DNA of 64,000 nt from a virus: the IMG/VR virus record IMGVR_UViG_3300020079_000009; one strand, 5' to 3'. The notes under the pieces were generated by a model, which worked only from the letters and a program-made list of their open reading frames with translations, had not been told where the DNA came from and made no database searches. Below, one piece after another: positions 18,801 through 60,806 of this stretch. The translations under genes and the position numbers were made by a program. Within the stretch, counting starts at the first letter, position 1, and every line of letters starts with the position of its first letter.

Positions 18801-19853
18801 TTATGACTTTTTGCCCTTTGAATTTCTGCAACATTTGCAAATAGAGTAAAAACCATCTTTGCTGGTCTTATTCTTAGAGAAGTATTTATTATGAGCAAGT
18901 TTAATTTGCCCGCATCGAGAGCATCTCTTGTACTTACCTTTTTCCTCATTGAGGAAATACCAATCTAAATATTCATCCTCGGCCGCAGAAGCTATCAAAC
19001 TTGGAATCTTCTTGCGCCAGAGGCTACTAATATACTCAAGAGAATGAGTAATACCAAATTCATCTTTCAGAATCTCTTGAATCTGAACATTTTGGAGTCC
19101 ATCAATTTTACATTCAACAATTCGCTCATAAAGTGGATAATCTGCTAATGCTTTTGTAGCAATATTGTCAAAGTCCTCCATTAAATACCAAGTGTTCGAA
19201 TCAAAGACTCCCCAACTGTCTTGTTTTAATCTTGAATAGTTACATAGGATGGCTTCGCATACTTTTGGGTCCACCAAAGTAACTCCTTTAGAAACGCAAT
19301 ACCCATTTTCATCTAAAGTAATTTCGCCATCCAATTGAATTGGATTTCTGCCATGCATTACTTTATTTAAAACAATTGGTTTGCGGAAAGCATCTTTAAC
19401 CAAGTACTGGTCCTTACGCAATTCAATAATAGCCTTTTTGGCAATGAAAGCGTCTCGACCTGTCGCTTTCTTCAAGATATTTTCCCAAACCTGAATGGCC
19501 TCTCTAATTTGCTGTAACTCTGGGATTTCTTCTAAATCTTTCTTTGTGATTGAAACTTTAGGTCTAAAAATTTGATTCTTGTCTTCTGTTATTAATCCAT
19601 AAATACCATCTTCGCCATTTTCAAATTGGGAAACAAGACCTTCAAAAGACGTTTCGCGCTTTGTAACTGTAGCCATACGGTTTTCAGTTAAAATCTTGCG
19701 CTCCTTTTTCTCTTGTTTCTCCATGCAGAGGATTAGGTAATCAGCGAGAATTTCCAGGTATTTATCACCTGGGTCTGGATTCTCTGCGAGAATCTTCTCA
19801 ACCAATGCCTTTCGCTCTTCTGGAGTTGTTAAACTGTAATCTAATTTAATCAT
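18801..19853 (-). CDS. hypothetical protein with C-terminal Cys-rich zinc finger (first gene of the leftward operon)
   Basis: 350-aa ORF directly downstream of minus-strand promoter TTGACT-17-TGGTATAAT. Confidence 0.3.
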   Translation of the reverse strand: MIKLDYSLTTPEERKALVEKILAENPDPGDKYLEILADYLILCMEKQEKKERKILTENRMATVTKRETSFEGLVSQFENGEDGIYGLITEDKNQIFRPKVSITKKDLEEIPELQQIREAIQVWENILKKATGRDAFIAKKAIIELRKDQYLVKDAFRKPIVLNKVMHGRNPIQLDGEITLDENGYCVSKGVTLVDPKVCEAILCNYSRLKQDSWGVFDSNTWYLMEDFDNIATKALADYPLYERIVECKIDGLQNVQIQEILKDEFGITHSLEYISSLWRKKIPSLIASAAEDEYLDWYFLNEEKGKYKRCSRCGQIKLAHNKYFSKNKTSKDGFYSICKCCRNSKGKKS

Positions 19854-19859
19854 CTTTAA

Positions 19860-19900
19860 CCTCCAGTCTTATACTATAATTATACCAGAAAATTTTCGAA
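19860..19900 (-). promoter_or_regulatory. leftward (late/structural operon) sigma-A-type promoter TTGACT-N17-TATAAT with TGG extended -10
   Basis: Reverse complement of 19860-19900 reads gggTTGACTtttcgaaaattttctggTATAATtatagtataagactGGAGGttaaagATG, leading into the 18801..19853 gene. Confidence 0.6.
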
Positions 19901-19927
19901 AAGTCAACCCGCACTGGAAACCGAATG

Positions 19928-19956
19928 TTGACAAATTAAAAATTTTTTGGTATAAT
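19928..19956 (+). promoter_or_regulatory. rightward promoter TTGACA-N17-TGGTATAAT, divergent from the structural-operon promoter
   Basis: tgTTGACAaattaaaaattttttggTATAAT, followed by RBS GGAAAGGA and ATG 19989. Confidence 0.6.
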
Positions 19957-20336: not shown

Positions 20337-20545
20337 TCTTGTGGGGAGTTATTTCCACAATTACATTTATTCCACATATGCCTGCATGCAAAGAGCTTAG
20401 CAGCGCAGATAAATTTACAGTTATGGTCATATTTTTAATCGGAGGGCCATTTTTTGCAATATCTAATATTCTTGAAGAATTATTAAATTGCATTATGCCA
20501 CCTGGTTGGGGAGGAGACGACGATGATTTCTTCAACAAATACTAA
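20312..20545 (+). CDS. small two-TM membrane protein
   Basis: 77-aa ORF with two hydrophobic segments and acidic C-terminus GGDDDDFF. Confidence 0.35.
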   Translation: MAGTWIAIILWGVISTITFIPHMPACKELSSADKFTVMVIFLIGGPFFAISNILEELLNCIMPPGWGGDDDDFFNKY

Positions 20546-21380
20546 TTTTGAACTAAAAAATATTAAAGAGTTTTGTGCCGATTGGAAAGCCAGTCTTAAA
20601 GATCGGCTGAGCGGGCAGCGCGCAATCCTTCATATTATTCAAGTTGGTGACAATCCCGCATCAACACGCTATGTTCGCAATAAAGTGAAGGACGCACAGG
20701 AAGTGGGCATCGAAGCGCAGGTTATTCATTTTCCAGAATCAGTAACCCAAGAGACTGTCGAACAATCCATTATTCAAATTGTTCAGACTAATGCTGAAAA
20801 TCCAGCTGGCATTATTGTGCAGTTGCCATTACCAATTCATTTGGATAAAAATAGAATTACAAGACTTATCCCAAGCCGCATGGATGTAGATGGATTTAAG
20901 AATGATAGTCCTTATTTCCCTTGCACTCCTCTTGGTATTATCACATATCTGAAAGCATGCAATTTCAATTTTGAGGGGGCAAATGCGGTAGTAATTGGAC
21001 GTTCTGAGATTGTAGGGAAACCCGTCGCAGAAATGTTGGTAGATTTGAATTGCACAGTTACATTGTGCCATAGTAAAACAAAGAATTTGCATACCTTTAT
21101 TGATAGCGCAGACTTGATAATTTGCGCGGTGGGTAAGGCCGGATTCCTGAACTGCTATCCGATCTACGTACCGGTTATTGATGTAGGTATTAATTTTAAT
21201 GAAGAAGGTAAAATGGTTGGAGACTGTATTAATACCGAGAATAGACTGGTAACCCCAGTTCCGGGTGGAGTTGGTCTTTTAACCAGATGCGCACTCTTGG
21301 AAAATATGGCGGTAGCCAAGCTGTTGTTTGAAAATCCTCGGCTTGACGAGGCGCAAATTCCAATTAAATTAGGAGAATAA
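20523..21380 (+). CDS. folD: bifunctional methylenetetrahydrofolate dehydrogenase/cyclohydrolase
   Basis: Collinear FolD motifs: VGDNPAS..YVRNKVK, VQLPLP, MDVDGF, PCTPLG, VVIGRSEIVGKP, CHSKTKNL, ADLIICAVGK, VIDVGIN, VTPVPGGVG. Confidence 0.9.
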   Translation: MISSTNTNFELKNIKEFCADWKASLKDRLSGQRAILHIIQVGDNPASTRYVRNKVKDAQEVGIEAQVIHFPESVTQETVEQSIIQIVQTNAENPAGIIVQLPLPIHLDKNRITRLIPSRMDVDGFKNDSPYFPCTPLGIITYLKACNFNFEGANAVVIGRSEIVGKPVAEMLVDLNCTVTLCHSKTKNLHTFIDSADLIICAVGKAGFLNCYPIYVPVIDVGINFNEEGKMVGDCINTENRLVTPVPGGVGLLTRCALLENMAVAKLLFENPRLDEAQIPIKLGE

Positions 21381-36808: not shown

Positions 36809-37252
36809 ATGGTAAATCAGAAAGATATTCTTGCCAGACTGCAGGCTGGTGAGAGCGCAGATGTTATTGCCCAGGAGCTGGTAGACGCACTCAACGCAGC
36901 TAATGCCGAGTTCGCCGCTGAGCAGGAAAAGGCAAGCACTGCAAAGGCTAAGGCCGAGTACATTGAGGAAATTGGCGCGCTCATTAAAGATTACATCCTC
37001 GAGTTCCACGCTGGTTCTGCTGTCGCCGAGGCAATCGCTGATCAGGAGATCGATGCAGCTGAGATTGTTGAAATGATTGACGCCGCTTTCGAGCAGCTTG
37101 ATGCCGAGGTGCGCAAGCTCAAAGAGTTTGAGAAGATGCTGAAAGGTATCATGGACCATGCAGATCACGCTCCTAAGGCACCTGTAGGCGGCAAGATTGA
37201 GCCTAATGTAGATGCGCTTGGAGCATTTCTAAAAGCCAACGGTTTGGCTTAA
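36809..37252 (+). CDS. acidic alpha-helical protein (147 aa)
   Basis: Class-2-like promoter at 36745-36775, RBS AGAGAGGT; terminator at 37331-37362. Confidence 0.45.
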   Translation: MVNQKDILARLQAGESADVIAQELVDALNAANAEFAAEQEKASTAKAKAEYIEEIGALIKDYILEFHAGSAVAEAIADQEIDAAEIVEMIDAAFEQLDAEVRKLKEFEKMLKGIMDHADHAPKAPVGGKIEPNVDALGAFLKANGLA

Positions 37253-37369
37253 GGTGAAGTCGTCCTCACTGGACTAAAAATTTGCTCCGTAGACTGAACA
37301 AGAACATAGCCCAAGAGGCAAAAAAGAAGAGGCTCTCTCCAGAAATGGAGAGGGCCTTTTTATATTATA

Positions 37370-37395
37370 TGTGCGTTTAAGAATTTAAACGCACA
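37370..37395. repeat. perfect 26-bp palindrome TGTGCGTTTAAGAATTTAAACGCACA
   Basis: 11-bp arms with a 4-bp centre, located between converging transcription units (terminators at 37331-37362 and 37503-37529). GGCCGATCGGCC palindrome follows at 37444-37455. Confidence 0.5.
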
Positions 37396-37519
37396 GGGTA
37401 ACGAAGACGGTGACGATGGAATTTTGATCAGCATGTCGCGGGCCGATCGGCCACCACTTCCACTGGATTTTACTGGATTTTCACCATTCATAACCAAGAG
37501 CAAAAGAAAAAGCCGAGGG

Positions 37520-37942
37520 TTAAACCTCGGCCTTAAACTCACCAACTAAATCGGTAATCTCCATATTACGTGCGGCAATGATGAAATCATTAATCATCTT
37601 ATCTAAATCTGTAGGGTCAACAACCGTGCTCTTCAACACATCATCAACTGCAACTTCTCTGCGCTTACCCCTACCAGGCTTACTTACTGGTACATTATCT
37701 TCATATTTATAAGTCTTGACCGCTTCGCGTTCAACTGGATATTTATAAGCATAACAACGATGGTCATCATACTCAGTAACAGAGCCAGACGCAAACGCCA
37801 CCTTACCAACAACTTCTCCATTAAGAATCAGTTCACCAGTCTCAGCAACTGCGTAAAGCACTCCTTTTTCCTGGTCTTTCTTCATCTCACTCTTTGGAGT
37901 CTTATATACATTATATCCTTTATACTTACCAATATGTTCCAT
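37520..37942 (-). CDS. hypothetical protein (140 aa), leftward island
   Basis: Minus-strand ORF; bidirectional terminator at 37503-37529. Confidence 0.45.
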   Translation of the reverse strand: MEHIGKYKGYNVYKTPKSEMKKDQEKGVLYAVAETGELILNGEVVGKVAFASGSVTEYDDHRCYAYKYPVEREAVKTYKYEDNVPVSKPGRGKRREVAVDDVLKSTVVDPTDLDKMINDFIIAARNMEITDLVGEFKAEV

Positions 37943-38067
37943 CTCATTTTTCCTTTCGTTTTTTTCATTTCATTTTTCGAAATGGGAATGAATTTTCAAT
38001 TCATTTTTCTATTTCTTTACTTATATTATATCATATTTTCATTTGAAAATCAAACCGATTTTTCAAT

Positions 38068-38298
38068 TCAGTTTTCAATTTCATTTAACTGTTGATATAT
38101 ATAATCTTCAAACGAAGTTTTTGTAGAAAATCCGACAGGATTTTCATTTTTCCTTTTGAAAGATACAACATAAAGGCTACCATCTTCCTTATCAAAGTAT
38201 ACCTCGGCTTCAGTAATACTTGGTCTTACTTTCATAAGGTCTAAAATCTGTTCCTTTGTTCCCCATTTAAACTTAACTTGCATCGCCGATCCTCCCAC
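38068..38298 (-). CDS. hypothetical small protein (76 aa)
   Basis: Minus-strand ORF preceding an A/T-rich TTTTCAATT-repeat region. Confidence 0.4.
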   Translation of the reverse strand: MGGSAMQVKFKWGTKEQILDLMKVRPSITEAEVYFDKEDGSLYVVSFKRKNENPVGFSTKTSFEDYIYQQLNEIEN

Positions 38299-38424
38299 GC
38301 GAAACGAGCTCGCTAAGGAAGGATTATAAAAGCCTGAGGACCGAAGGTCCGAAGGATTTTTAATCCTTCCCCACTATTGAGCCACTCTCTATTATTATTT
38401 AATAGGATACTATTTTTTTAACAA

Positions 38425-38545
38425 AAATGCCGATTTTGCCGAAAATTTTTAACAACTATTGCCGAAAATTTTTAACACATTGCTTAGATGTACAAAATTT
38501 TAACACTTTTATATAGGTGTCTAAATTTTTAACAAATCTCATTCG
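38425..38545. repeat. iteron array (left of HTH gene): GCCGAAAATTTTTAACA x2 and (A/G)GATGTACAAAATTTTAACA / GGTGTCTAAATTTTTAACA
   Basis: Direct repeats at 38430, 38460, 38486 and 38517 ending in TTTTAACA. Confidence 0.6.
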
Positions 38546-39143
38546 TAAGCCATTCTAATTCATAGATTGTCTTGATATTCTTAAATGAAGTATCGTCCTG
38601 TTCCTTTGTAGTCATATGGTATTTAATCAGTCCCAATTTCTCCAATACATAAAGAATATTCGTAATAGTATCATCGTTACTTCTTGTTGTAGAACAAATT
38701 CCAATATTCTCTTTCACTTGAGCCAATGTGAACTGGAATGCTTTACAACCAGTTGCATAGTATCTATTAAATAGATACACATATGTATTAATACTGTGCT
38801 CACTTAATGTATCAGTAATCAGTTTCAAAGTCTTATATGGCACGAGTGAAGCGATATCATTCGCCAAAGGTAGAATTAAAAACGAATTCTCGTCTTTCTT
38901 CGTGACGAGCCCTAAATCTACGAGATTGTTAAACTTCTTAGAAACTGTCTGACGGCTCATATTAAACATGGCAGATAACTTTGAGAAGTTAATCTCTTTC
39001 TTCCCAACAGTTCTCTCACCAGTCTTTTCGTCATAAGAAGAAATGCACTGAAGGTGAGCATAGAGAATGTCATAATATCTCTTATCAGCACAAATCTGTT
39101 TTACCTTCGGGACCTGACGAGAGTCCCTTTTCATTTCAAGCAT
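38529..39143 (-). CDS. HTH DNA-binding protein flanked by iterons (candidate repressor or replication-initiator/ori-binding protein)
   Basis: AGGAGG 8 nt upstream of ATG 39143 (MLEMKRDS...). HTH segment SKLSAMFNMSRQTVSKKFNNLVDLGLV. Opposite orientation to surrounding genes; direct repeats GATGTACAAAATTTTAACA on both sides. Confidence 0.55.
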   Translation of the reverse strand: MLEMKRDSRQVPKVKQICADKRYYDILYAHLQCISSYDEKTGERTVGKKEINFSKLSAMFNMSRQTVSKKFNNLVDLGLVTKKDENSFLILPLANDIASLVPYKTLKLITDTLSEHSINTYVYLFNRYYATGCKAFQFTLAQVKENIGICSTTRSNDDTITNILYVLEKLGLIKYHMTTKEQDDTSFKNIKTIYELEWLTNEIC

Positions 39144-39209
39144 GCAACTATTCCTCCTTTGCCATACATAATATATGAACAAAGTTGTTAATGGGTTAAC
39201 AGAATCTAC

Positions 39210-39345
39210 CCATTTATATAGATGTACAAAATTTTAACAAAATATCAAGGTGTCTAAAAATTTAACACATTTTTTTAACAATTATAGAGATGTACAAAAT
39301 TTTAACAACTCAATAAGATGTACAAAATTTTAACAAAAATCTCCG
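39210..39345. repeat. iteron array (right of HTH gene): four copies of GATGTACAAAATTTTAACA-like 19-mers
   Basis: Copies at 39217, 39247 (GGTGTCTAAAAATTTAACA variant), 39285 and 39316, spaced ~30-35 bp apart. Confidence 0.6.
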
Positions 39346-39396
39346 CAGTTGATTTTTACAAAATAATATGTTATAATATATATATAAAGTAAAAGG

Positions 39397-39708
39397 ATGG
39401 TAGATAATATGTCAGTAGATTATTCAGCAGGTGTTGTTTACGGTTGGAAACTGAAGCAGGGACGATATGATGAACTCCCCGACGAAATCAAAGATGAATA
39501 CGGCATTCAGACCGACTGTTATGGTTACGGCGGAGATTACTTTGTCGGTGTAAAGCAGTATGGTTGTGATTGCGGCGAGTCTGACGAGATGAATACCGAT
39601 GAAATCGCATTGCCTTTCGAAGACTTTGCAAAAATCCTCGCTGCAATACCCGACATCATAGCAAAATATCCTAATCCGTCACTGTATGTATATTGCAGAG
39701 TTTCCTAA
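39397..39708 (+). CDS. hypothetical protein (103 aa)
   Basis: Class-2-like promoter at 39341-39375; RBS AAAGGA. Confidence 0.4.
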   Translation: MVDNMSVDYSAGVVYGWKLKQGRYDELPDEIKDEYGIQTDCYGYGGDYFVGVKQYGCDCGESDEMNTDEIALPFEDFAKILAAIPDIIAKYPNPSLYVYCRVS

Positions 39709-39800
39709 CGGTGCCGTCAATTTTCGTTCCGTCACGAAAAATTGACAAACTCTAAAAATGCCGAAAAATTTTAACAGAAATAAAAGGAGAGTACAAGTCT

Positions 39801-40280
39801 ATGAATACTCAAAAATTTTGTAGAACTTGCGCCCTGGCCGACCCTGAGAATCTTGTATGTCAGCTTCTCCGAATGAGAATCGACCTTGATAAAGACTTTT
39901 GCTCAAGACACACAACTGAGGACCAGCTTGGGACTTGCGCGTACTGCGGCCAAATGTATCTTGGACCCGCAATTTTGGAGCAAACGGAAGACGGTTCGTT
40001 CATTGAACTGTGTCCTTCCTGTAACGAAAAGTTTGGAACCTGCGTGATGTGCACCGGTTTCACCAAGTGTAAACTGACAGATGAATCTTATAAACCACAG
40101 ATTCCGGTTACGGTCATCAAGACTATCCAACAGGGCAATATGAGAGCCCGCACGCAGATTGTTAACCCGGAGCGCATTGATGCAATCTGCAAGGCAGAGT
40201 GCAAATGCTGGGATGGCGAAGGTTGCGCGAGACGCGATTTCGGTACTTGCGCCAAGTATAACCAAAAGAAACCAAAGTAA
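39801..40280 (+). CDS. Cys-rich protein (159 aa, multiple zinc-ribbon-like CxxC pairs)
   Basis: RBS AAAGGAGAG; 18 Cys. Confidence 0.45.
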   Translation: MNTQKFCRTCALADPENLVCQLLRMRIDLDKDFCSRHTTEDQLGTCAYCGQMYLGPAILEQTEDGSFIELCPSCNEKFGTCVMCTGFTKCKLTDESYKPQIPVTVIKTIQQGNMRARTQIVNPERIDAICKAECKCWDGEGCARRDFGTCAKYNQKKPK

Positions 40281-49279: not shown

Positions 49280-49343
49280 GATTGGCGATTTGAGGGGACA
49301 GGGAAACCTGTTCCCTCTTTTTTAATTGAATAAGGAGGTTATT

Positions 49344-50750
49344 ATGTCTGGTAAAAAGATGTTTGCATTTTGGCTTGGGTGCATATGCATGTTCTTTACG
49401 ACATTGTTCCCAAGTTTGGACATTGCGTTCGCTGGGTTAAGTGGCGATGCAATTACAATGATTGGCATATTCATTGGTGCTATCATTATGTGGCTTTTTG
49501 TGGATGTAGGCTGGCCGAGCTTACTGGTGCTATTTTCATTGACGCAGTTGACTGATGTGACCATATCGATAGTAATGGCGAATTCATTGGGTAATAATAC
49601 TATTGCCTTCCTCATTTTCAGTTGCGCGCTGACATATGCGCTCTCCACGACTGGACTTTTGAGACGAATCGCATTATGGTTTGTTAATACACCAATAGCA
49701 AAGAAATCCCAATGGGCATTTGCGGCAATGTATTTCGTATCCATTTTGGTAATCGGAAGCTTCATTTCCCCGACCGTTTTATTCGTTTTATTCTTTGCTT
49801 TGGCGAAGGAAATTTACGACATTAATGGATTCCAAAAGGGCAACGCATATGCAAAGATGTTAATGATTGGTACGGCTATTATGACTTCAATATCTTGCGC
49901 GATGACTCCTATTGCTCACACCTTCCCGCTCATGGCGATTGGCTTTTATGAATCTGCGACTGAGGAAGTTATTAACTGGATTGATTATATGCTGATTGGT
50001 ATTCCAGCTGGATTGTGTGCGGCGGGGGCAACCTTTGGCGCTTTATGGTTAGGTTTTAGGAAACAAGTGGCTCATGTTCAAGTCGCTGCTTCTGAAAATA
50101 CGACTAAGATTACTCGAAAAGAGATTGTTGCTTTAATTGTTTTCTTGGTTGTTGTGGCAATGTGGATGGTCTCTGGTTTATTCCCAGATTGGCTTCCAAT
50201 ATTAAAAACTTGGACCACAACTGTTCCTCCTATGCTGGGCGTCATTGTTCTTTGTTTGTTTGGCATTTTGAAATTCAATGATGCAATGAAGAATGGCGTG
50301 CCTTGGACAGCAATTATTTTGTGTGCATCAACTCTTGCAGTTGGTAAATGGTTAACTTCTGCGGACCTCGGCATTACCGCGGCGATTGGCGAGGGTCTTG
50401 GAGCAATTATTGGTCAACCTTCAATGTTAGGTTTGATTTTTGCAATAGTATGCTTCACTGTAGTAATGACTAATTTAATGTCAAATATTGTTACGACTAC
50501 CGTTTCATATAATTTACTGACACCAATAGTAATTGCAACTGGAGTTATTTCGCCTGTTTTGTCTACTATCTTGATTGGTATGTGCGCATCAATGGCTTAT
50601 GCAACTCCACCAGCTATCGCTCATGTAGCACTTGCGGCAGGGTCTGAATATTGTGATTCCAAAGATATGTTGATATATGGTGGTATTGCAACGGTTATTT
50701 CGATTGTATTCGTTGTAGGTTTTGGATTCATATTTGGAGGTATTATATGA
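49344..50750 (+). CDS. polytopic membrane transporter (ArsB/NhaD/DASS anion-permease superfamily-like)
   Basis: RBS AAGGAGG before ATG 49344; ~12 predicted TM segments; hairpin-tip-like motifs ANSLGNNT and LMSNIVTT. Confidence 0.5.
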   Translation: MSGKKMFAFWLGCICMFFTTLFPSLDIAFAGLSGDAITMIGIFIGAIIMWLFVDVGWPSLLVLFSLTQLTDVTISIVMANSLGNNTIAFLIFSCALTYALSTTGLLRRIALWFVNTPIAKKSQWAFAAMYFVSILVIGSFISPTVLFVLFFALAKEIYDINGFQKGNAYAKMLMIGTAIMTSISCAMTPIAHTFPLMAIGFYESATEEVINWIDYMLIGIPAGLCAAGATFGALWLGFRKQVAHVQVAASENTTKITRKEIVALIVFLVVVAMWMVSGLFPDWLPILKTWTTTVPPMLGVIVLCLFGILKFNDAMKNGVPWTAIILCASTLAVGKWLTSADLGITAAIGEGLGAIIGQPSMLGLIFAIVCFTVVMTNLMSNIVTTTVSYNLLTPIVIATGVISPVLSTILIGMCASMAYATPPAIAHVALAAGSEYCDSKDMLIYGGIATVISIVFVVGFGFIFGGII

Positions 50751-52017: not shown

Positions 52018-53073
52018 ATGAGAATTTTACGAGAAAATGAATTGAAGACTTTTGAACAAATCGTATCTTTAAAGCAACCGGCTTTGAAAAAGGTAATGTC
52101 CAATTTCCTCAGAAAGAAGTATAGCAAGGTTATTGAAACCAAGGATTATATTGTTGCGGTTGGTGAGATTCCGATTGCTTTGACGGCGCATATGGATACT
52201 GTCTTTGACAAGCCAGTTTCTGAAATGTTTTATGATACTCGCAAGAATGTAATTTGGAGTCCTGAAGGATTGGGTGCAGATGATAGAGCTGGTGTGTATG
52301 CAATTATTCAGATTCTGCGTGCAGGTTACCGTCCTCATGTAATCCTTACCACCGATGAAGAAAAAGGTTGTTTGGGTGCTGGAGAACTTGCAAAATTAAG
52401 CTGTCCTTTTGAGGATTTGAAGTATGTTATTGAACTGGATAGACGTGGTACAAATGACTGTGTATTCTATGATTGTGAGAACCCTCAGTTTGTTGATTAT
52501 GTTGAGCAGTTCGGCTTTACTGAGGCCTATGGTAGCTTTTCTGACATCTGTGAGTTTTGTCCTGAATGGGGAGTTGCTGGTGTAAATCTGTCTATTGGAT
52601 ACCGTGATGAACACAGTCATCAAGAACTTTTGTTTGTAAGCCCTATGTTCGCAACAATCGAAAAAGTTAAAAAGATGTTGGACGAGGAAGAAATTCCTTT
52701 CTTCAAGTATATTCCCAGTCCCTACGCTTGGAATTGGAAAAACTGGAAGAAAGATGGGTGGGAAGAAAACTACTACTCTAAAGCGTATGGGTACGGTTGT
52801 TACTCCTATCCATATGATGATGAAGTCGTTTGTACGAAGTGTCATAAGACCTTCCTCGAAGAAGAAGTATTTCCAGTTAAACTCTTAGATGGTAAGACAG
52901 GCTGGTATTGTCCTGACTGTTTAGTTGATAATGTATCTTGGTGTAAATATTGTCAAGAGCCATTTGAGGTTGAACCTGGTACTGATATTAGTCTTGTGGA
53001 TGTTTGCCCCGACTGCGCAAAGAATCCAAAGCCTAAGTCCGATAAAAAGAAAAAAGGCAAGGGGAATAAATAA
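52018..53073 (+). CDS. M28/M42-family-like zinc aminopeptidase with C-terminal Cys-rich zinc ribbon
   Basis: Metal-ligand motifs AHMDTV, GADDRAGV, TTDEEKGCLGA; C-terminal CTKCH...CPDC...CKYC...CPDC. Confidence 0.55.
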   Translation: MRILRENELKTFEQIVSLKQPALKKVMSNFLRKKYSKVIETKDYIVAVGEIPIALTAHMDTVFDKPVSEMFYDTRKNVIWSPEGLGADDRAGVYAIIQILRAGYRPHVILTTDEEKGCLGAGELAKLSCPFEDLKYVIELDRRGTNDCVFYDCENPQFVDYVEQFGFTEAYGSFSDICEFCPEWGVAGVNLSIGYRDEHSHQELLFVSPMFATIEKVKKMLDEEEIPFFKYIPSPYAWNWKNWKKDGWEENYYSKAYGYGCYSYPYDDEVVCTKCHKTFLEEEVFPVKLLDGKTGWYCPDCLVDNVSWCKYCQEPFEVEPGTDISLVDVCPDCAKNPKPKSDKKKKGKGNK

Positions 53074-53075
53074 AC

Positions 53076-54488
53076 ATGGTTAATATTAAAGAAATCCAAG
53101 AGCAATTTAATAAAGTTATTTCACATTCTCAGGGCATTAATGAACCCCAAACTGACGAGCTTTTTAGCAGATGGCTTGAGGCTAAGAGAGACATTATTGA
53201 AGCGATGGATGGGCGTCTTATTTATACCATTCCACAAAAAGTCAGTTTTGAACTGAGCTATAAAGAGAAAATGAATCGAGTTAATGAGTTTATCGAGTCT
53301 GTTTCTATGACTTGGAGAAACAATGATTTGGCTTGTTTCATTGATGAAAATAAAGACGGTTTTTTCAGTAATGTTGTCGTTGAGAGTTTTACTGCGCCAA
53401 GGGGTGAAAAGATTCCGAAGGGCATGAAGCTCGTTAAGGCTTTTAAGTTCTTTGAAGATGACAAGATTACTTTGGAAGAAATTCAGAATCGTGCAAGTAT
53501 GATTATCCAAGAGGATAAGGTAGAAGGCTGGTTGTGTTTTTCAGTTCATCCTTTGGACTTTTTAAGTACGAGTGAAAACACATACAACTGGCGCTCTTGT
53601 CATGCGCTTGATGGCGAATATCGTTGCGGCAATTTATCTTATATGATGGATAAGTCTACTGTTATTTGTTACTTAAAGAGTGACAAAGACGATAACCATT
53701 TGCCGAATTTCCCAAGTGATGTTCCTTGGAACTCTAAGAAATGGAGAATGTTATTGTTCCTTAGCGATGCTTGGAATGCAATGTTTGCGGGCAGGCAATA
53801 TCCATTCTTTAGTGAAACTGCTTTAGAATCAGTATTGTATCACTCTATGAATGTGTTTAAGTTCCACGGACAGTGGAGTAAGTGGCATAATGATGAATTG
53901 CGCAACTTCAATTTTGCTGGAGATGAGGAACATGAAGATGAGATGTACTTCAGGAGTCCATATCTTCCAATTCGAGGGAGATTGTATCCTAAAGAAGAGC
54001 TGATTGAAGACTGTGAAAATCCGATGCACTTCAATGATTTGTTGAGAAGTTCTTGTTATATTCCATATTACTGTTGGAATAAATCATATTTCAGTGGTCA
54101 TAAAGAGATTCACTTTTTGATTGGTGGCGAAATTCCTTGTTTGCGCTGCGGCGAATATCCGGTCGCTCAGACAGATGATATGCTTTGTCGAGATTGCGAA
54201 CTCGAGTATGGGAGTTCTGAAGATGAAGCCTACATCACCTGCTCTTGTTGTGGACGAAGAATTTTATATGATGATTCTTGGTACGTCGAATCTTCAGGAG
54301 AAAATGTTTGTGAAGAATGTGCCAATAGAGAATGTAGAACCTGTGATAATTGCGGAGAACTTTATTGGAATAGCGATATAGTGTATGACAAGAAAAATCA
54401 TGACTATCGTTGTGAGCATTGTCACTCTGATAATGACGATAGACAAGAAAGGATGCAAGAGTTTTTTAGCTCATTGCTACCGTTCTAA
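53076..54488 (+). CDS. large Cys-rich protein, paralog X2 of 47166..48767
   Basis: See X1; coupled to the peptidase gene (stop/start 3 nt apart). Confidence 0.5.
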   Translation: MVNIKEIQEQFNKVISHSQGINEPQTDELFSRWLEAKRDIIEAMDGRLIYTIPQKVSFELSYKEKMNRVNEFIESVSMTWRNNDLACFIDENKDGFFSNVVVESFTAPRGEKIPKGMKLVKAFKFFEDDKITLEEIQNRASMIIQEDKVEGWLCFSVHPLDFLSTSENTYNWRSCHALDGEYRCGNLSYMMDKSTVICYLKSDKDDNHLPNFPSDVPWNSKKWRMLLFLSDAWNAMFAGRQYPFFSETALESVLYHSMNVFKFHGQWSKWHNDELRNFNFAGDEEHEDEMYFRSPYLPIRGRLYPKEELIEDCENPMHFNDLLRSSCYIPYYCWNKSYFSGHKEIHFLIGGEIPCLRCGEYPVAQTDDMLCRDCELEYGSSEDEAYITCSCCGRRILYDDSWYVESSGENVCEECANRECRTCDNCGELYWNSDIVYDKKNHDYRCEHCHSDNDDRQERMQEFFSSLLPF

Positions 54489-54655
54489 ATATGGGTATGA
54501 AATATATAATTGACGGCTTCAATTATCCTTATAGAGGAATTGAAGCGCAACGTCAAACTTCATATTGGTTGATTGCGGCGTTCTGGTTTGCCGTTTACTC
54601 AGTCAAGTTTGATGGTGTTAATATAATCAAGAGAAAGTAAAAGGAGAAAGAGCAT

Positions 54656-54976
54656 ATGGCAAAGGGTGCAGAAGCAAAGGCTAATGTAGTCAAGAAAATC
54701 CAAGCTGCTTTTGGAGCAGATTTTGTTGGTGAATATGATAAGAAAGTGTATGTGTGGGCACAAGAGAACGGCGAGAAAATTCAGATTGCTATTTCTATGA
54801 CCTGTCCTAAAAATCCAGTAGGTGCAGTTAATCCTGCAGCTTTAGATTTCGGTGGCGACCTTGATTTTGAAAATATGGGTGCGCCGGTTGTTGCACAGAC
54901 CTCTTTCGAGCCAGCTGAAATTTCCGATGAAGAAAAGCAGACTGTTGCAGATTTAATGGCGAGACTTGGTCTATAA
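54656..54976 (+). CDS. hypothetical protein (106 aa)
   Basis: RBS AAAAGGAGAAAGAG. Confidence 0.4.
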   Translation: MAKGAEAKANVVKKIQAAFGADFVGEYDKKVYVWAQENGEKIQIAISMTCPKNPVGAVNPAALDFGGDLDFENMGAPVVAQTSFEPAEISDEEKQTVADLMARLGL

Positions 54977-55155
54977 TTGAAATTTGGACGAAAGATAAGA
55001 GGTGTGTGAAGGGATTCACATACCTCTTTAATAGTTTTGGTTAGAAGTTAACAATTTATCTATAATGAATTTTATAGTATACAGGAGACAATTCAGCTTT
55101 GTCTTGACTTAACATAAAATTTATGTTATAATATAATTAAAAAGGAAGGAGTTTT

Positions 55156-56961
55156 ATGATGTCAGAGAATCTATTATCGAATAAATATAAAGACCGTAGT
55201 CCGATGGATACAGTCAATTTAATTAAATCATTTTTCGAGAATAGTGGATTTAAAATCGGACATACAATGTTCCAGACTGAAATTGGGACTTGGACTTGCC
55301 ATGTAACTATTTCTTCCAATAACTTAGAGGTTCTTGGTAGTAATGGCAAGGGTATGACTCAAGAATTCGCTTTGGCCAGCGGCTACAGTGAAATGTTCGA
55401 GCGTTTTTCCAATAAAGTAGGATATATTAACAATCCTTACTTCCAAAGAAAAATTAGAGCCTTGAGAGAAGACTATGTATATTGTCCAGAAGAAAAGAAG
55501 ATTGATGCTTATGATATGGTTATTGAGAATCATATTTTAGACCAATATTATAGAACATTCTTGAAATCTGATGAAAATATGAAGAAGTTCTTTGAAATCA
55601 ATTATCCTGATGGCGCAATCGGCGTTCCTTTTACAAGCGTTTCTGACCCCACAAAGGTTAAGTATTTAGACCCAAGTATTATGCAGCGTGCTACTGGTAG
55701 TAATGGTATGGCGGCTGGTAATACAGAAGAAGAAGCTTTGAATCAAGGTTTGTCCGAGCTTTTTGAGCGCAAGGGAACTGTATTATTTTATAGTCAGCCA
55801 CAAGAGCATTATCGTGCGGTTGACCTTGAAACAATTACAAGAGAAGATTTTAGAGAAGCAGTAAGTAATATCGTTAATCGAGAGTTTGATTTTATTGTTA
55901 TGGATTTATCCCATAATTTTGGCATGCCAGTATTAGCTGGTTTGTTAATTGATAAAATTGGTTGTAATTGCCGTGTAAACTTCAGTGCCTTTCCAGTTTT
56001 TGATATCGCATTTGAAAGAATTTTAACTGAGTTATATCAAGGTATTGATAATATGAGAATGTATTGCTCTGGTTTTGAAGTTCCTGCAAAAACAAATAAA
56101 GCATCTTTTGTTTTGAATTTCTATGGAAACAATTATTCTCAAGCTAATTATATTCATGATGAATTTATTACTGAAAAAGTAGAGTATGTTCCTTATGATG
56201 TTTTGGCATATGAAAGTAAAGTGTTCGTAAATCCTGATAGTACAAATGTGAATTTATTGGATTACTATAAAAAGCTCTCCAAAGATTTGGGTTATGAATT
56301 CTTTTATTATAATTGCAGTCCTATCCCAAATGAGATGGCAGCTGTTTATATTTTAGGACCAGATTTTTGTTCTATTGAACAAATTCGTGAAAAGAATGCT
56401 CGTTTCATTAGTCCTATTATTGTTCAAGCATTGCTTATAATGTTTGAAAGAATGCAAAATTTAACCTCTTTAATTTGTGACTTAACTGACCATATTGGTG
56501 ACCAAGAGTATTATGATAAGCTTTATAATGAGTATAACTTATTTAGAAACTTATCTGCTAATACAAATGATTATGAACATTTTGGCGATTTATTATTGTC
56601 AACTTATGATAGCTGTCTGTTTAATGGAGAAGGTATTTCACCAATGTTCTCTGTTGAGCAAATGTTAAATAATGGAAATAATGGTCAAATTCCAACTGTT
56701 AATCCAAAGAGTTATCTTTATGGCATCCAGAAATTATATGCTTCTATTATGGTATATAAGTGTAATGGATACAGCAATAAAGAGATTAAAGATATTTTCA
56801 AAACTTTGTTTGGTACAGAATTAACTTATCCTCAAATTGAAGATGTACCTAATATGGACATTGCATTGATGGATTGTTATTTCTATCCAACTTCTGCCTT
56901 TTACAATAGTGATATTTACGATAATATTGTAAAAGCATATTTTAGCGTAAAGGAGGAGTAA
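55156..56961 (+). CDS. YcaO-domain protein (azoline-forming cyclodehydratase / thioamidation family)
   Basis: Signature GSNGKGMTQEFALASGYSEMFERFSN matches the YcaO ATP-binding motif (GKG...A..SA..E..ER). Size 601 aa. Promoter TTGACT-18-TATAAT at 55105-55134. Confidence 0.75.
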   Translation: MMSENLLSNKYKDRSPMDTVNLIKSFFENSGFKIGHTMFQTEIGTWTCHVTISSNNLEVLGSNGKGMTQEFALASGYSEMFERFSNKVGYINNPYFQRKIRALREDYVYCPEEKKIDAYDMVIENHILDQYYRTFLKSDENMKKFFEINYPDGAIGVPFTSVSDPTKVKYLDPSIMQRATGSNGMAAGNTEEEALNQGLSELFERKGTVLFYSQPQEHYRAVDLETITREDFREAVSNIVNREFDFIVMDLSHNFGMPVLAGLLIDKIGCNCRVNFSAFPVFDIAFERILTELYQGIDNMRMYCSGFEVPAKTNKASFVLNFYGNNYSQANYIHDEFITEKVEYVPYDVLAYESKVFVNPDSTNVNLLDYYKKLSKDLGYEFFYYNCSPIPNEMAAVYILGPDFCSIEQIREKNARFISPIIVQALLIMFERMQNLTSLICDLTDHIGDQEYYDKLYNEYNLFRNLSANTNDYEHFGDLLLSTYDSCLFNGEGISPMFSVEQMLNNGNNGQIPTVNPKSYLYGIQKLYASIMVYKCNGYSNKEIKDIFKTLFGTELTYPQIEDVPNMDIALMDCYFYPTSAFYNSDIYDNIVKAYFSVKEE

Positions 56962-56965
56962 CAGT

Positions 56966-57970
56966 ATGCCTACAGTAAGTCGCGGCGATAGACTATTATA
57001 CAGCGCGCAAATTAAAAATTGGTATGATAGACTTAATTCTGTAATTACGAAATATGGCGGAGGTATGGCTACGATTGCTGTTCCTTCTGCTACTCCCGCA
57101 AAAGCCTCCGATGTAAATAATCTTGTGGCTAAATTAAATGCCATGAAAGCAGATAGTTACCTGGGTTCAAATGCAAACTTATACCCAACATATTCTACTG
57201 TTGGAATAGGTACAATCATTTATGCGAATACGGGTAACCAGTTAGAAGCAGTTATTGCTAAACTGGAAACTATTAAGTGTCGTAACTCTTATACTCACAG
57301 TAACCAGAATCATTCTAATGGAACAAACAGCCAAACTTGTTCTAATAGTGCTCATAGCAATAATAACTCTAACACATCAAACAGTAATACTTGTTCCAAT
57401 AGTACAAATAGTAACACTTGTACAAACGGCTCTAATAGCAACACTTGTTCCAATGGTAGCCATAGTAACACCTGTTCTAATGGTACTCATGGAAATACAA
57501 ATAGCCACGGCTATAATAGCAATACCAATAGCAATAGTTCTCATGGTCAATCTTGTTCTAATGGTAGCAACTCCTACGGTGCACGTGGCAATGGATTGAA
57601 GCATCATAGTAGTAGATTCTATACTGACCAATGTTCTTATCAGTATAAATCTAATGGTACTTGTGGAACTAATGGTAGTCACAGTAATACTTGTTCAAAC
57701 GGAACCAATGGTAATACCAATAGTAATGGATATAACAGTAATACTTGTTCTAACAGTGCTCATAGCCAGGGTTGTTCTAATAGTGCGCACAGCCAGAGCA
57801 GAAGCCATAGTACACATGGTCAGACTTGTTCTAATAGTGCTCACAGCCAAACAAATTCCAATGTCACTAACTCACAGACCTGTTCAAACAGTGCTCATAG
57901 TAACACTAATTCTCACCAGGCTAAATCTAATGTAACGGTTATTGATATTATGAATAGTTATAAACCATAA
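56966..57970 (+). CDS. candidate RiPP precursor: ~115-aa leader-like N-terminal region followed by a Cys/Ser/Thr/Asn/His-rich repetitive core (~20 Cys)
   Basis: Core is imperfect 9-10-aa repeats (SNTCSNGSH / CSNSAHSQT ...) encoded by nucleotide tandem repeats 57290-57900. Lies immediately between the YcaO and two rSAM/SPASM genes, coupled (5-nt gap). Confidence 0.5.
   Translation: MPTVSRGDRLLYSAQIKNWYDRLNSVITKYGGGMATIAVPSATPAKASDVNNLVAKLNAMKADSYLGSNANLYPTYSTVGIGTIIYANTGNQLEAVIAKLETIKCRNSYTHSNQNHSNGTNSQTCSNSAHSNNNSNTSNSNTCSNSTNSNTCTNGSNSNTCSNGSHSNTCSNGTHGNTNSHGYNSNTNSNSSHGQSCSNGSNSYGARGNGLKHHSSRFYTDQCSYQYKSNGTCGTNGSHSNTCSNGTNGNTNSNGYNSNTCSNSAHSQGCSNSAHSQSRSHSTHGQTCSNSAHSQTNSNVTNSQTCSNSAHSNTNSHQAKSNVTVIDIMNSYKP
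57290..57900 (+). repeat. imperfect tandem nucleotide repeats (~27-30 nt units, e.g. TGTTC(T/C)AATAGTGCTCATAGCCA) encoding the precursor core
   Basis: Repeats of aatagtgctcatagc / aacacttgttccaatgg visible by eye; spurious ORFs on other frames (57255..57599, 57377..57682, 57654..57935). Confidence 0.6.
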
Positions 57971-57985
57971 GGAGAGTTTTGACAT

Positions 57986-59362
57986 ATGAAATGCGGATTA
58001 AATTGTATGAATAAAGAGCGCAGTGTCGCGGTGTTTTACACCTGCGGCACCTGCAATCTAAAATGTAGATATTGTAACATCGATAAGAATCCTGTGTTAG
58101 CTAAGATTGATGAAAAGTTAGCAGAGAGTTTTGAAGGCGATTACTATTTTAACCAAATGAAAGAGTGGTTTCCAAATATTGACCAGCTTCGTAAGATTGA
58201 AACTTGGGGTGGAGAGCCATTTTTGCATATGGAAAGAATTTATAATTTGATTACTCAAGTTATTGAATATTATCCATATTTCGACCAGTTCTTCTCTTCT
58301 ACAAACTTCTCATATCCAGAGTGGACAAATAAAGTATTTGGTTTAACTGACCAGTTTGCCAAGTACCCAGAAAGAACTTTTAGATTCACTTTACAGCTTT
58401 CTATGGACGGTCCTGAGTATATCAATGACCCAAATAGAGGTAAGGGCGTAACCAAGAGATGTATTGAAAATTTCAATAAGTTAATGGATATGATTCCTGA
58501 AAGACTTCCAAATAATGTTGTTTTAGAAATCGTATTCAAGCAGACTTTGGATACTTATTCAGTAAGAGAACTTTGCGATAAGCAAAAGATTATTGAGTAT
58601 TTCCAATTTTTTGAGAATTTTTATTTGAGAATCAATGAGTTAAATCTGCCAAATGTATTGATGTCTTGTACAGTACCTAACACTGCCGTACCTGCGCCAG
58701 TCACTAAGAAAGATGGCGAAATCTTTGCTGAGTTCTGTCGTCTTTGCAATGAAATTGAAGTTGAGAATTATAGAAACCATTACTTTAGATACTATGAAAG
58801 TATCATGCCTTATTTTGGCGAACCAATGCCTTTAAATGCAACATATGAACACTGTTCTACTTTGTGCGGCAGTGGGTCTATTATGGTTTGTTTATTGCCA
58901 GATAATCTGGTATCTACTTGCCATGAAGGATTTACTTCATTATATGAAGACTATAAGAAGTTTGCACAATCTTCTGGACGTGTTGAAGATGGTACTATTA
59001 ACTTTAACCAGTGGGTAAATGAAGATGGTCCTGTATATGTGTTGGATGCAGAAGGTTATAAAGAGCATGAGAGATTTATGGGTTATTATAACCATCCATG
59101 GTCAACTGCGCGAATGGTTAACACGACCGCTTTGATTCGTACTCTCGCTCTTGCAGATGAGATTGAAAGAAAATACTTGAATGAAGATGAAGCGTTGCGT
59201 GCTGCGCATTTTATGGCAGGTCATTCTTCTTATTGTATCAAGGATAATTATAATGTAACAGGTTCTCATAGCTTGACACCTGTTGGTTTGTTTAAGTTAT
59301 TATTAAACGGAGCGAAAGCTTATATTGAAGAAGGAGAAAGGAGAGTAAGATCGAATGGATAA
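57986..59362 (+). CDS. radical SAM enzyme with C-terminal SPASM/twitch-like Cys cluster
   Basis: CGTCNLKCRYC (Cx3Cx2C), GGEPFL SAM-binding motif, C-terminal CSTLCGSGS...C..C cluster. Confidence 0.8.
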   Translation: MKCGLNCMNKERSVAVFYTCGTCNLKCRYCNIDKNPVLAKIDEKLAESFEGDYYFNQMKEWFPNIDQLRKIETWGGEPFLHMERIYNLITQVIEYYPYFDQFFSSTNFSYPEWTNKVFGLTDQFAKYPERTFRFTLQLSMDGPEYINDPNRGKGVTKRCIENFNKLMDMIPERLPNNVVLEIVFKQTLDTYSVRELCDKQKIIEYFQFFENFYLRINELNLPNVLMSCTVPNTAVPAPVTKKDGEIFAEFCRLCNEIEVENYRNHYFRYYESIMPYFGEPMPLNATYEHCSTLCGSGSIMVCLLPDNLVSTCHEGFTSLYEDYKKFAQSSGRVEDGTINFNQWVNEDGPVYVLDAEGYKEHERFMGYYNHPWSTARMVNTTALIRTLALADEIERKYLNEDEALRAAHFMAGHSSYCIKDNYNVTGSHSLTPVGLFKLLLNGAKAYIEEGERRVRSNG

Positions 59363-60806
59363 TGTGATTGTAAATATTCATGACGACAAGGAATTATTCC
59401 AGCAAGAACAAGATAAATTATTGCAAGTTGTATTAGATAAACGATTCTTCTCTACTTGGAGACCAAATAATAGTGCGATGGATGTACCTCGTGGGCATGT
59501 GGAGTTATTTATTACTTCTCAGTGTAACCAAAAGTGTGAGTATTGTTATTTGGTTAAATATCCTGACCTTTATCCAAAGGAATTTTTAAACCCAGAGCAA
59601 ATCAAAGAAAACCTTAAAATTTTTTATGACTGGGTTATTGCAAATAATTATTGTATTCCTCAGATTGAGTTTTATACTGGCGAAATCTGGCATAGTAAAT
59701 TTGGAACTGATATCTTAGATATTACTTTTGATTATCTTTTAGCTGGATTGCAAGTGCGCCAGTTCATGATTCCTTCTAACTGCAGTTTTCTTAAAGACCG
59801 TAAGAGAGCTGCAATTATTCAAGGATATATTGACAAGTTTAGAGCTATTGGTGTTCCACTTATTTTCTCTATCTCTATTGATGGAAAGTATGTAGATAAT
59901 GATATTCGCCCTAATGTCAATGCGAAAATTACTCATGATGATGACTTTTATGATATGGCGTTTTCATTTTCTAAGCACAATGGATTTGGCTTCCATCCGA
60001 TGATTGCGGCAGCCTCTATTGAAATGTGGCCAGAGAATTATAAGTGGTGGAAAGAAATGCTAAAGAAATATGGCTTGACTCTTGGAGAAGTTATGATGCT
60101 TGAAGTAAGAAATGGAGACTGGACTCCAGAGAAAATTCAAGCGTTCTTAGATTTTGAGGATATTTTAATTGATGGTCTTTTAGAGCGTAATGATAATGAC
60201 CCAATTAAAGCTTGTATTTTCGGTTTTGGTATTAACCAAACTTATTATGATAAGAATTTGTTAGCTATCGAAGACGAAGAAATGAGTGCATATACGCCTT
60301 ATCATTTAGCAGAAACTGATGAATTTCTTGGATGTACGTTACAAAATACTTTAACAGTTCGTTTAGGTGATTTAGCAATTTGCCCTTGCCATAGAACTGC
60401 TTATAATAAAAATCTATATGGTTGGTTTACTGTTGAAAATGGGGCAATTACAGGTATTAAATCTAATAATCCTCATCAGGCTATTAGAAATCTAATGGTA
60501 AATAACCATGTGGGAACTTTAGGTTGCGACTCTTGTTTCTATAATAGATATTGTATGGGTGGATGCCCTGGTCAACAAATGGAAAAATTTAATGACCCAT
60601 ATCATTTAGACCCTACGGTTTGCAACTTCTTAAAGAGTAAGATTAAGCATTTGATTAAACGTTACCATGATTTAGGATTTTTGGATTGGTTAAAAGAAAA
60701 CATTTCTCCTTACCATGTATTTTATCCAAATGCGCAGAATCTTATTCGTTTATATGAAAATGTAATGGAGGAGGAGCGTCATGAGCGAATGGCAGAATTT
60801 AGATAA
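59355..60806 (+). CDS. radical SAM/SPASM-domain enzyme (second)
   Basis: SQCNQKCEYC (Cx3Cx2C); C-terminal SPASM-like CPCHRT...GCDSCFYNRYCMGGCPG. Overlaps the rSAM1 stop by 8 nt. Confidence 0.8.
   Translation: MDNVIVNIHDDKELFQQEQDKLLQVVLDKRFFSTWRPNNSAMDVPRGHVELFITSQCNQKCEYCYLVKYPDLYPKEFLNPEQIKENLKIFYDWVIANNYCIPQIEFYTGEIWHSKFGTDILDITFDYLLAGLQVRQFMIPSNCSFLKDRKRAAIIQGYIDKFRAIGVPLIFSISIDGKYVDNDIRPNVNAKITHDDDFYDMAFSFSKHNGFGFHPMIAAASIEMWPENYKWWKEMLKKYGLTLGEVMMLEVRNGDWTPEKIQAFLDFEDILIDGLLERNDNDPIKACIFGFGINQTYYDKNLLAIEDEEMSAYTPYHLAETDEFLGCTLQNTLTVRLGDLAICPCHRTAYNKNLYGWFTVENGAITGIKSNNPHQAIRNLMVNNHVGTLGCDSCFYNRYCMGGCPGQQMEKFNDPYHLDPTVCNFLKSKIKHLIKRYHDLGFLDWLKENISPYHVFYPNAQNLIRLYENVMEEERHERMAEFR

Follow-up and report, generated by a model that had tools for sequence, protein, structure and literature searches.

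Mini-F (ori2-repE-incC) and P1 (incC-repA-incA) share the order iterons, rep gene, iterons; in P1 the initiator gene is bracketed by 19-bp iteron arrays with the promoter inside one of them, and in mini-F the operator is read by the second winged-helix domain (WH2) of the initiator RepE. Rep origins of this kind combine an initiator carrying WH1 and WH2 with iterons, a DNA-unwinding element (DUE) as well as DnaA boxes (PMC4980987), and RepE sits on its inverted-repeat operator as a dimer (PDB 2z9o). Here we describe a locus of related layout in the virus record IMGVR_UViG_3300020079_000009 of IMG/VR, analysed as one stretch of 64,000 nucleotides (the window), in which three minus-strand genes at 37520-39143 lie inside a plus-strand block as the sole unit running against its surroundings. 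The first of them encodes a 204-aa protein predicted to have two tandem winged-helix domains (2WH), and arrays of 19-nt direct repeats stand on both sides of it (Table 1). It is very likely that the 2WH protein specifically binds these repeats and regulates itself, a statement common to all the readings weighed below; more tentatively, we favour an autoregulated, Rep-like origin-binding initiator with its ori/control iterons.

The repeats are concentrated at this locus. Exact copies of the 19-mer GATGTACAAAATTTTAACA number four in 64 kb (38487, 39221, 39289 and 39317), where chance would give 0.03, and eleven 19-nt sites of the TGTTAAAAWTTT type, all on one strand, extend from 38405 to 39776 on both sides of the 2WH gene. 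The core TGTTAA[AT]4 has 14 matches in the window when both strands are counted, 11 of which fall within 38423-39776, all on the minus strand, leaving only three strays in the remaining 62 kb. Read on the minus strand, a site consists of TGTTAAAAWTTT and a heptamer that varies, being GTACATC in four sites, AGACACC in two, TCGGCA(A/T) in three and AGTATCC in one, and successive sites are spaced by 28, 27, 13 and 28 bp upstream of the gene and by 29, 28, 23 and 31 bp downstream of it, with a period of about 28 bp. The iteron array is the best-scoring tandem repeat outside an open reading frame (ORF) in the window, and it reaches into the gene itself: the final Cys codon and stop of the 2WH gene (TGT TAA) are the first 6 nt of a downstream iteron, and the same Cys-stop ending is present in several relatives. 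A previous sequence-only reading of the window had reported repeats on both sides of a helix-turn-helix (HTH) gene, and this holds, with five sites on each side (variants and a half-site included) and one outlier; it had also recognised the three minus-strand genes and the 204-aa HTH protein, but had put the HTH gene last, whereas it is the first gene of the minus-strand unit.

An AlphaFold2 model of the 2WH protein made with 43 relatives (pLDDT 88, pTM 0.83) predicts two tandem winged-helix domains, WH1 at about residues 25-102, with the recognition helix S63-R64-Q65-T66, and WH2 at about residues 103-199, with a conserved N-terminal strand (NSRQxPK) ahead of them. The only structures matching both domains of the model are those of the iteron initiators RepE (mini-F) and pi (R6K): the top 23 Foldseek matches in the PDB, all full-length, are RepE54 or Rep-iteron/DUE complexes (best E about 1e-3, probability 0.90-0.99, TM-score 0.35-0.45). 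In BFVD, several of the few named best matches are called 'Replication initiator protein', 'Replication protein O' or COG5527, the other named ones merely 'Helix-turn-helix domain protein'.

Sequence searches gave sub-threshold matches to a single winged HTH (wHTH), at residues 48-90 only. The best in Pfam was MarR_2 (26.3 bits versus a cut-off of 27, residues 51-84 only), and the matches in Pfam, NCBIfam and PADLOC involve the wHTH part of transcription regulators (MarR, Crp, ArsR, Lrs14, Csa3). A one-domain wHTH repressor of the MarR, ArsR or Crp type was nevertheless rejected, as these matches lie below the cut-off, the protein has a second WH domain and its sites are mostly direct repeats. 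The best profile match, and the one over the full or nearly the full length, is PHROG 3396 (E 1.1e-14), labelled 'segregation and condensation complex subunit ScpB'; ScpB is a tandem winged-helix protein, and this is what the two have in common. We rejected ScpB identity, since an SMC or ScpA partner with a ScpB-like fold as top structural match is not what was found.

Recognition helix and repeat change together. In a comparison set of 37 non-redundant loci of the family (32-100% identity; given below by L-numbers), a helix of the form (S/T)RQT goes with TGTTAA half-sites in 33 of 33 loci. Only three loci have a different helix and all three have changed half-sites: L029 (SRKT) carries at least seven copies of AATGGTCAAAATTTTCTAT, with the half-site TGGTCA, L024 (DRRS) carries four copies of TGTACAAAATTTTCTGA, with the half-site TGTACA, and L016 (NRNT) has the half-sites TGTTCA, TGTCTG and TGCTTA. 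This co-evolution, seen at the level of sequence, is strong evidence that the 2WH protein binds the repeats through WH1, and it is silent on the purpose of the arrays. As a separate observation, L029, a 5.6-kb locus with a single 2WH gene, keeps a composite of the TGTTAA type (half plus full site) just upstream of its new TGGTCA array (2171-2230 and 2296-2440), either as a relic of a specificity switch or as the target of a paralogue located elsewhere in the genome.

The half-iteron inverted repeat upstream of the 2WH gene, the only GTTAA-N2-8-TTAAC in the 64-kb window, overlaps the -35 of a proximal promoter-like site identified by promoter scan (TTAACC-18-TATATT, 39199->39170), and on its sequence is a candidate auto-operator of the gene. 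The form TGTTAA-N2-6-TTAACA is found once per locus, 43-79 nt upstream of the 2WH start, in 23 of the 37 loci. In L048 and L049 its right arm (TTGACA or TTTACA) is the -35 hexamer itself, so that a half-site binder must compete with RNA polymerase at the 2WH promoter. At the other end, the last element after the downstream array, TTGTTAAAAAAATAGTATCCTTATAAATA, is readable as -35/N17/-10 and is conserved down to 36% protein identity; its -35 half-site shifts with the half-site of the lineage (TTGGTC in L029, TTGTAC in L024, TTGCTT in L016), and because it changes along with the helix, the downstream promoter would be under 2WH control. In the window, the downstream small genes are probably transcribed from this element. 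The promoters of the 2WH unit are weak, self-overlapping promoter-like sites, not the strong extended -10 type used elsewhere. Since each repeat itself resembles a sigma-A promoter (TTGTTA-N16-TATAAA), we considered tandem promoters as the main role of the arrays and rejected it, because the arrays flip orientation in L018 and L021-23, because the last copy in L017 abuts the ribosome-binding site (RBS), because the repeats are without the TG-extended -10 of the genome's 56 strong promoters, and because the '-35' half co-varies with the protein helix.

The layout recurs throughout the family, in the common order upstream array, inverted repeat at the promoter, gene, downstream array, last element, hairpin(s) and small genes. 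Upstream arrays hold 3-10 sites, with 7-10 tandem copies in some relatives, often as 27-28-bp units of the 19-mer plus CTATATAAA, and include composites in which 13 bp separate a half-site from a full site; they are inverted in L018 and L021-23. Downstream arrays, present in 33 of the 37 loci, have 2-5 sites and are always gene-oriented. The small genes after the last element differ between lineages while the 2WH gene is conserved, and the place of the gene is fixed in phages of 100-220 kb in which this cargo changes. Metagenomes contain many members of the family (279 clusters at 90% identity in one search, 363 at 50% in another) on contigs reaching 220 kb, and its members are named in the sources as ArsR, DtxR or biotin-operon repressors, or as ScpB. 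Among bacterial genomes, a single match was obtained in 185,579 species, on a short contig of a Lachnospiraceae metagenome-assembled genome.

Compared with Rep_3 initiators (RepE of mini-F, pi of R6K, RepA of pSC101/pPS10), the locus is thus alike in the predicted tandem WH1-WH2 fold, in asymmetric direct repeats of about 19 bp, protein-specific and arranged beside the gene in the window and the 37 loci, in arrays of 4-10 that take both sides of the gene as in mini-F, and in a partial-iteron inverted repeat over the gene's own promoter, the right arm of which coincides with the -35 hexamer. Phage initiators and organisers such as lambda O, SPP1 G38P and DnaD-like proteins are also winged-helix proteins acting on repeated sites, and weak PHROG matches, to O-like and DnaD-like families (E 1e-4 to 1e-3) and also to replication-initiation ones, point their way together with the BFVD name 'Replication protein O'; all of these PHROG matches run through WH1 only. 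Each lambda iteron is palindromic and located within the O gene, whereas the sites here are outside the gene and asymmetric, and no helicase or loader gene adjoins the 2WH gene.

Building on what was established directly, namely the sites, their confinement to the locus, the conserved layout, the predicted fold and the helix/half-site co-variation, a Rep-like mechanism would run as follows. The 2WH protein, with a stoichiometry that we infer, would bind as a monomer to the 19-bp asymmetric site, WH1 reading TGTTAA(AAWTTT) with its S-R-Q-T helix and the remainder of the protein, probably WH2, reading the variable distal heptamer (GTACATC, AGACACC or TCGGCA). With about five sites on each side of the gene at a period of about 28 bp, the locus would form a self-contained iteron module. 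The inverted half-sites overlapping the -35 of the gene's own promoter would provide autorepression, and the last downstream site, being the -35 of the small-gene promoter, would tie cargo expression to site occupancy. One array may serve as origin and the other as copy-control locus, through handcuffing or titration, as in mini-F and P1. The further steps, DNA melting and helicase recruitment as well as origin function itself, would be speculative. The Rep-like reading gains support because arrays of 7-10 sites exceed the usual needs of promoter control.

Several results weigh against it. Rep_3 (PF01051 / PF21205) is neither among the Pfam matches of the protein nor among the 25 families listed for 99 relatives, a profile search of the PDB was negative for Rep_3 homology, and an hhalign comparison of the family profile with a 19-sequence RepE profile was not significant (P 0.17); for the latter, the RepE sequence was rebuilt, identical to that of PDB 2z9o, and its relatives, all carrying PF01051, were collected. 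Because the profile comparison is not significant, the likeness to RepE is one of fold and architecture, not of demonstrable homology. The protein is also shorter (204 aa versus 251-305 aa), and its conserved half-site is apparently read by WH1, unlike the RepE operator. No relatives were detected in 72,556 plasmids, so that the family, unlike Rep_3 systems, is one of large phages and never of plasmids, nor were any detected in isolated phages, one unannotated faecal contig being the sole match among phage records. Whereas the approximately 22 bp of classical iterons makes whole helical turns, a 28-bp period does not, and no TTATCCACA-like DnaA box (at most one mismatch) was found between 31.6 and 42.7 kb. 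A/T-rich stretches of the island do not stand out from many promoter regions of the window, and its base composition bears no sign of an origin. Moreover, no replication gene was found among the large ORFs of the window (transporter, YcaO, two radical-SAM proteins, peptidase) or adjoining the 2WH gene in distant relatives, where the neighbours are small or metabolic genes. Two sites stand exactly at -35 positions, the last one doubling as a downstream promoter element as Rep_3 sites do not, which would equally fit a plain transcription factor; the symmetry of the inverted repeat could be partly incidental, because its right arm doubles as the -35 (TTGACA in L048); and the cargo genes are exchangeable.

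Strand asymmetry did not help to place an origin. Cumulative GC skew, which had been proposed as a check, proved uninformative when run, its minimum at about 20 kb being the switch in gene orientation. Third-position GC skew is alike on both sides of the island (-0.028 versus -0.033), and third-position AT skew separates an early-gene class from the rest, including the gene 36809-37252 to the left of the island; since the split follows gene class and not position, it reflects gene class and not replication. Taken together, these tests neither exclude nor support an origin at the island. The earlier proposal of a phage ori with its initiator therefore keeps the fold, the flanking repeats, the half-iteron repeat at the promoter and the co-variation on its side, and loses on DnaA boxes, replication neighbours and Rep_3 membership.

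The chief alternative, a real possibility that we hold with reserve, is a purely local transcription regulator that represses its own promoter and controls the cargo promoter, the arrays giving cooperativity or titration, with no role in replication. Consistently with this, a half-site inverted repeat covers the -35 of the proximal promoter, the last site stands at the -35 of a conserved promoter-like element whose half-site tracks lineage specificity, and after that promoter come a stable leader hairpin and genes that vary between relatives while the regulator is conserved; the family matches to the wHTH of transcription regulators and the non-replication neighbours point the same way. However, promoter regulators do not usually have 7-10 asymmetric sites in tandem flanking their gene on both sides, and the full-length structural matches are to replication initiators, not regulators. 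The flipping of the upstream array in L018 and L021-23 without its loss argues against a promoter array, and the fixed place of the gene despite the change of cargo suggests that the gene's own function is what is conserved.

Returning to the initiator reading, its strongest form would make the family a sequence-orphan branch of RepE/pi-like initiators, driving an F/P1-style low-copy replicon that maintains the phage as a plasmid-like episome (carrier or pseudolysogenic) without an integrase, the switches from TGTTAA to TGGTCA or TGTACA being incompatibility escapes between co-infecting relatives; we consider this unlikely. The P1 plasmid-prophage replicon resembles the locus itself, as a phage-borne initiator gene between 19-bp iteron arrays. 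Some extrachromosomal mycobacterial prophages are described as requiring a RepA-like protein for autonomous replication (PMC7157519). Unlike P1 and the RepA-dependent mycobacteriophages, the present locus is followed by no partition genes, there is no sign of a prophage state, and its host probably belongs to the Clostridia; no resemblance in sequence to P1 RepA was found, although no search was aimed at it.

A repressor serving immunity or maintenance in a temperate or carrier-state phage, acting as a monomer on asymmetric operators in the manner of the P1 C1 and Bacillus phage phi105 repressors, appears very improbable. Such a repressor would suit a unit that alone opposes the surrounding block, is closed by terminators, has weak self-overlapping promoter-like sites and carries asymmetric direct repeats as operators. 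Yet the sites are gathered at one locus and not on the many early promoters (the three strays mentioned above are all that the other 62 kb contain, and 0 of the 56 strong promoters coincides with an iteron core match), the protein has no HTH_3 or peptidase S24 match of the CI/Cro type, no integrase or partition gene was seen among the window genes scanned, and a single match in 185,579 bacterial species argues against frequent lysogeny. The lysogeny or immunity switch offered by the sequence-only reading is accordingly poorly supported, for want of a CI-like domain and with sites confined to one locus. Least credible of all is a centromere-like complex (TubR/ParR-like adaptor) or a pac-site complex (small-terminase-like), for, although direct-repeat arrays overlap the promoter of the binding protein's own gene in parC/ParR and tubC/TubR much as they do here and a weak PHROG match to small terminase exists (HTH only, E 6e-4), no ParA, ParM or TubZ-type NTPase lies beside the 2WH gene in the window or the relatives, the large terminase is 21 kb off in the other gene block, and the protein has two WH domains without a terminase oligomerisation domain.

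Table 1. Positions of the features of the locus, of the surrounding window and of hairpins in related loci.
Feature	Position	Strand	Detail or basis
Upstream iteron array	39221-39335	minus	exact 19-mers 39221-39239, 39289-39307, 39317-39335; variant 39249-39267; half-site 39270-39280
Downstream iteron array	38405-38534	minus	38516-38534 (over stop codon); exact 38487-38505; 38459-38477 and 38436-38454 (TTTTCGGCA subtype); degenerate 38405-38423
Outlying iteron, TTTTCGGCA subtype	39758-39776	minus	over plus-strand promoter-like site just upstream of gene 39801-40280
Half-iteron inverted repeat TTGTTAA-TGGG-TTAACA	39185-39202		57 nt upstream of 2WH ATG
2WH gene (204 aa)	38529-39143	minus	start 39143, RBS AAGGAGG
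Promoter-like last element TTGTTA-N17-TAAATA	38396-38424	minus	-35 is an iteron half-site; read from sequence
Long hairpin in 5' leader of 71-aa gene	38314-38373	minus	RNA fold -42.7 kcal/mol, z -3.5
71-aa gene, variable cargo	38068-38283	minus	ORF
A/T-rich region with TGAAWTGAAAA boxes (TTTTCAATTCA cluster) around extended -10 promoter TTGATTTTCAAATGAAAATATGATATAAT	37945-38100	minus	
140-aa gene, variable cargo, own strong promoter 38053->38025	37520-37942	minus	ORF and promoter scan
Left border of island	37326-37534		plus-strand and minus-strand terminator-like hairpins, 11-bp inverted repeat, GGCCGATCGGCC palindrome
Right border, divergent strong promoter TTGATTTTTACAAAATAATATGTTATAAT for plus-strand genes to the right	39349-39377	plus	
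Portal gene	13731-15401	minus	
Large terminase gene	15786-17525	minus	
Sigma factor gene	18801-19853	minus	PHROG 5767, E 3e-53
Na/sulfate-citrate-type transporter	49326-50750		
RiPP-like cluster, peptidase	52018-53073		
RiPP-like cluster, YcaO cyclodehydratase	55156-56961		
RiPP-like cluster, ORF with two blocks of about four 27-nt coding repeats	56966-57970		
RiPP-like cluster, two radical-SAM proteins	57986-59362 and 59355-60806		
Post-iteron hairpins in relatives	L005 about 10700-10760; L021 about 4680-4730; L024 about 750-800; L025 about 1520-1575; also L016/17, L047-L050		

The island stands out in composition, with a G+C content of 0.35-0.38 versus about 0.45 in the flanks, and convergent terminator-like hairpins at 37326-37361 (plus) and 37534->37509 (minus) shut it on the left. 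At 37370-37395, what had been taken for a perfect palindrome of 26 bp is an inverted repeat of 11 bp whose 4-nt centre is not palindromic, and it is unique in the window; a second palindrome, GGCCGATCGGCC, is present at 37441-37452 as reported, but such palindromes are at chance frequency (20 perfect 12-bp palindromes in the window versus 19.1 in shuffles; 2 versus 1.4 for the G+C-rich ones). Both were rejected as parts of the system, one being at chance frequency and the other a boundary hairpin.

The A/T-rich repeat cluster described earlier at 37945-38100 does exist, and flanks the strong minus-strand promoter of the 140-aa gene. All four exact copies of TGAAWTGAAAA in the window sit in the island (37962-38070 and 39128-39138, minus), three around that promoter and one where the 2WH coding sequence begins; the palindrome AATGAATTTTCAATTCATT makes up part of the cluster. 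Similar boxes are found in L005, one set immediately upstream of a promoter of the same type. The boxes may be an operator for a different regulator. We rejected the TTTTCAATTCA cluster as an unwinding element, given its place around a strong promoter and its distance of 330 bp to 1.1 kb from the iterons (window and L005), and it is treated here as promoter-associated and outside the iteron set.

The 71-aa and 140-aa cargo genes had no match in family profile searches, Pfam and PHROG included, and none in PADLOC as defence or anti-defence genes; they occur in close relatives only. The hairpin in the leader of the 71-aa gene is probably an RNA stabiliser or processing site; Rfam returned no match for it, giving only a sub-threshold sRNA match on a terminator and a spurious miRNA match. 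Every lineage has one or more long stable hairpins just past the last iteron/promoter element, with structure conserved and sequence not. The loop at their tip often resembles GCTTCGC or CTTCGG, and Rfam contains none of them. As no T run follows, they are no intrinsic terminators; they may stabilise the mRNA at its 5' end or act as RNase III sites.

To the left of the island, 36809-37252 (plus) encodes an acidic, alanine-rich protein with a C-terminal motif like (D/N)xxxIxxFL(K/R)xxGL. An acidic, Ala-rich protein of 115-160 aa recurs beside the 2WH gene, in varying orientation (L019 3503-3850, L021 5325-5789, L024 1903-2391); the resemblance is weak, with tblastn giving 29-32% for L015 and L012 and pairwise comparison nothing significant for the deeper lineages, and the window protein has no family match. 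It could be a functional partner of the 2WH protein. In many relatives, the 2WH homologue has an in-frame TAG where the protein of the window or other relatives have Q (L005 10001-10615, L012, L016-L018, L021, L022, L024-L026), and these relatives appear, from the alignment of such positions, to read TAG as glutamine. The window's own 2WH gene is without an in-frame TAG, and of 99 ORFs chosen with a crude greedy caller, only 9 end in TAG.

The window comes from a large tailed phage, with virion genes on the minus strand at 1-20 kb and, beyond 20 kb, a long block of mostly small plus-strand genes. The closest named relatives of its portal are those of gut phage phAss-1 and of Enterococcus siphoviruses of about 140 kb; the hosts of the phage are probably Clostridia. 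A FolD-like methylenetetrahydrofolate dehydrogenase/cyclohydrolase gene (20523-21380, E 5e-69) and the sigma factor gene bracket a divergent promoter pair at 19879-19956, the turning point of cumulative GC skew, and a cluster resembling those for ribosomally synthesised and post-translationally modified peptides (RiPP) spans 52018-60806. The window holds 56 near-perfect extended -10 promoters (3558-63704; TTGACA/TTGAYT-N14-TGNTATAAT) versus 0.14 expected by chance. They fall into a class with TTGACAAA and variable spacers at 22.9-36.4 kb, about one per small gene, and a second class at 36.7-63.7 kb, a near-invariant 29-mer, TTGATTTTTTATAAAAAATATGTTATAAT, whose A/T spacer is palindromic; the island lies about 0.8 kb past the boundary into the second. 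The two promoter classes may be two temporal gene classes.

Iteron-initiator modules are already known; what is new here is a sequence orphan, misnamed in the sources and carried by large uncultured gut phages, with a 28-bp period, an apparent reading of the conserved half-site by WH1 and an iteron serving as promoter -35. Origins and origin-binding proteins are known for very few of these phages, and the locus is a directly testable candidate for an origin or a regulator. If it is a regulator only, it would still be a tidy case of a conserved control cassette with exchangeable cargo. It also offers a handle for shuttle replicons or regulated promoters in Lachnospiraceae and other Clostridia. 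Moreover, its DNA sites can be read from the genome with a partial specificity code (helix RQT with TGTTAA, RKT with TGGTCA, RRS with TGTACA), and the family thus forms a natural series in which to study how iteron specificity evolves.

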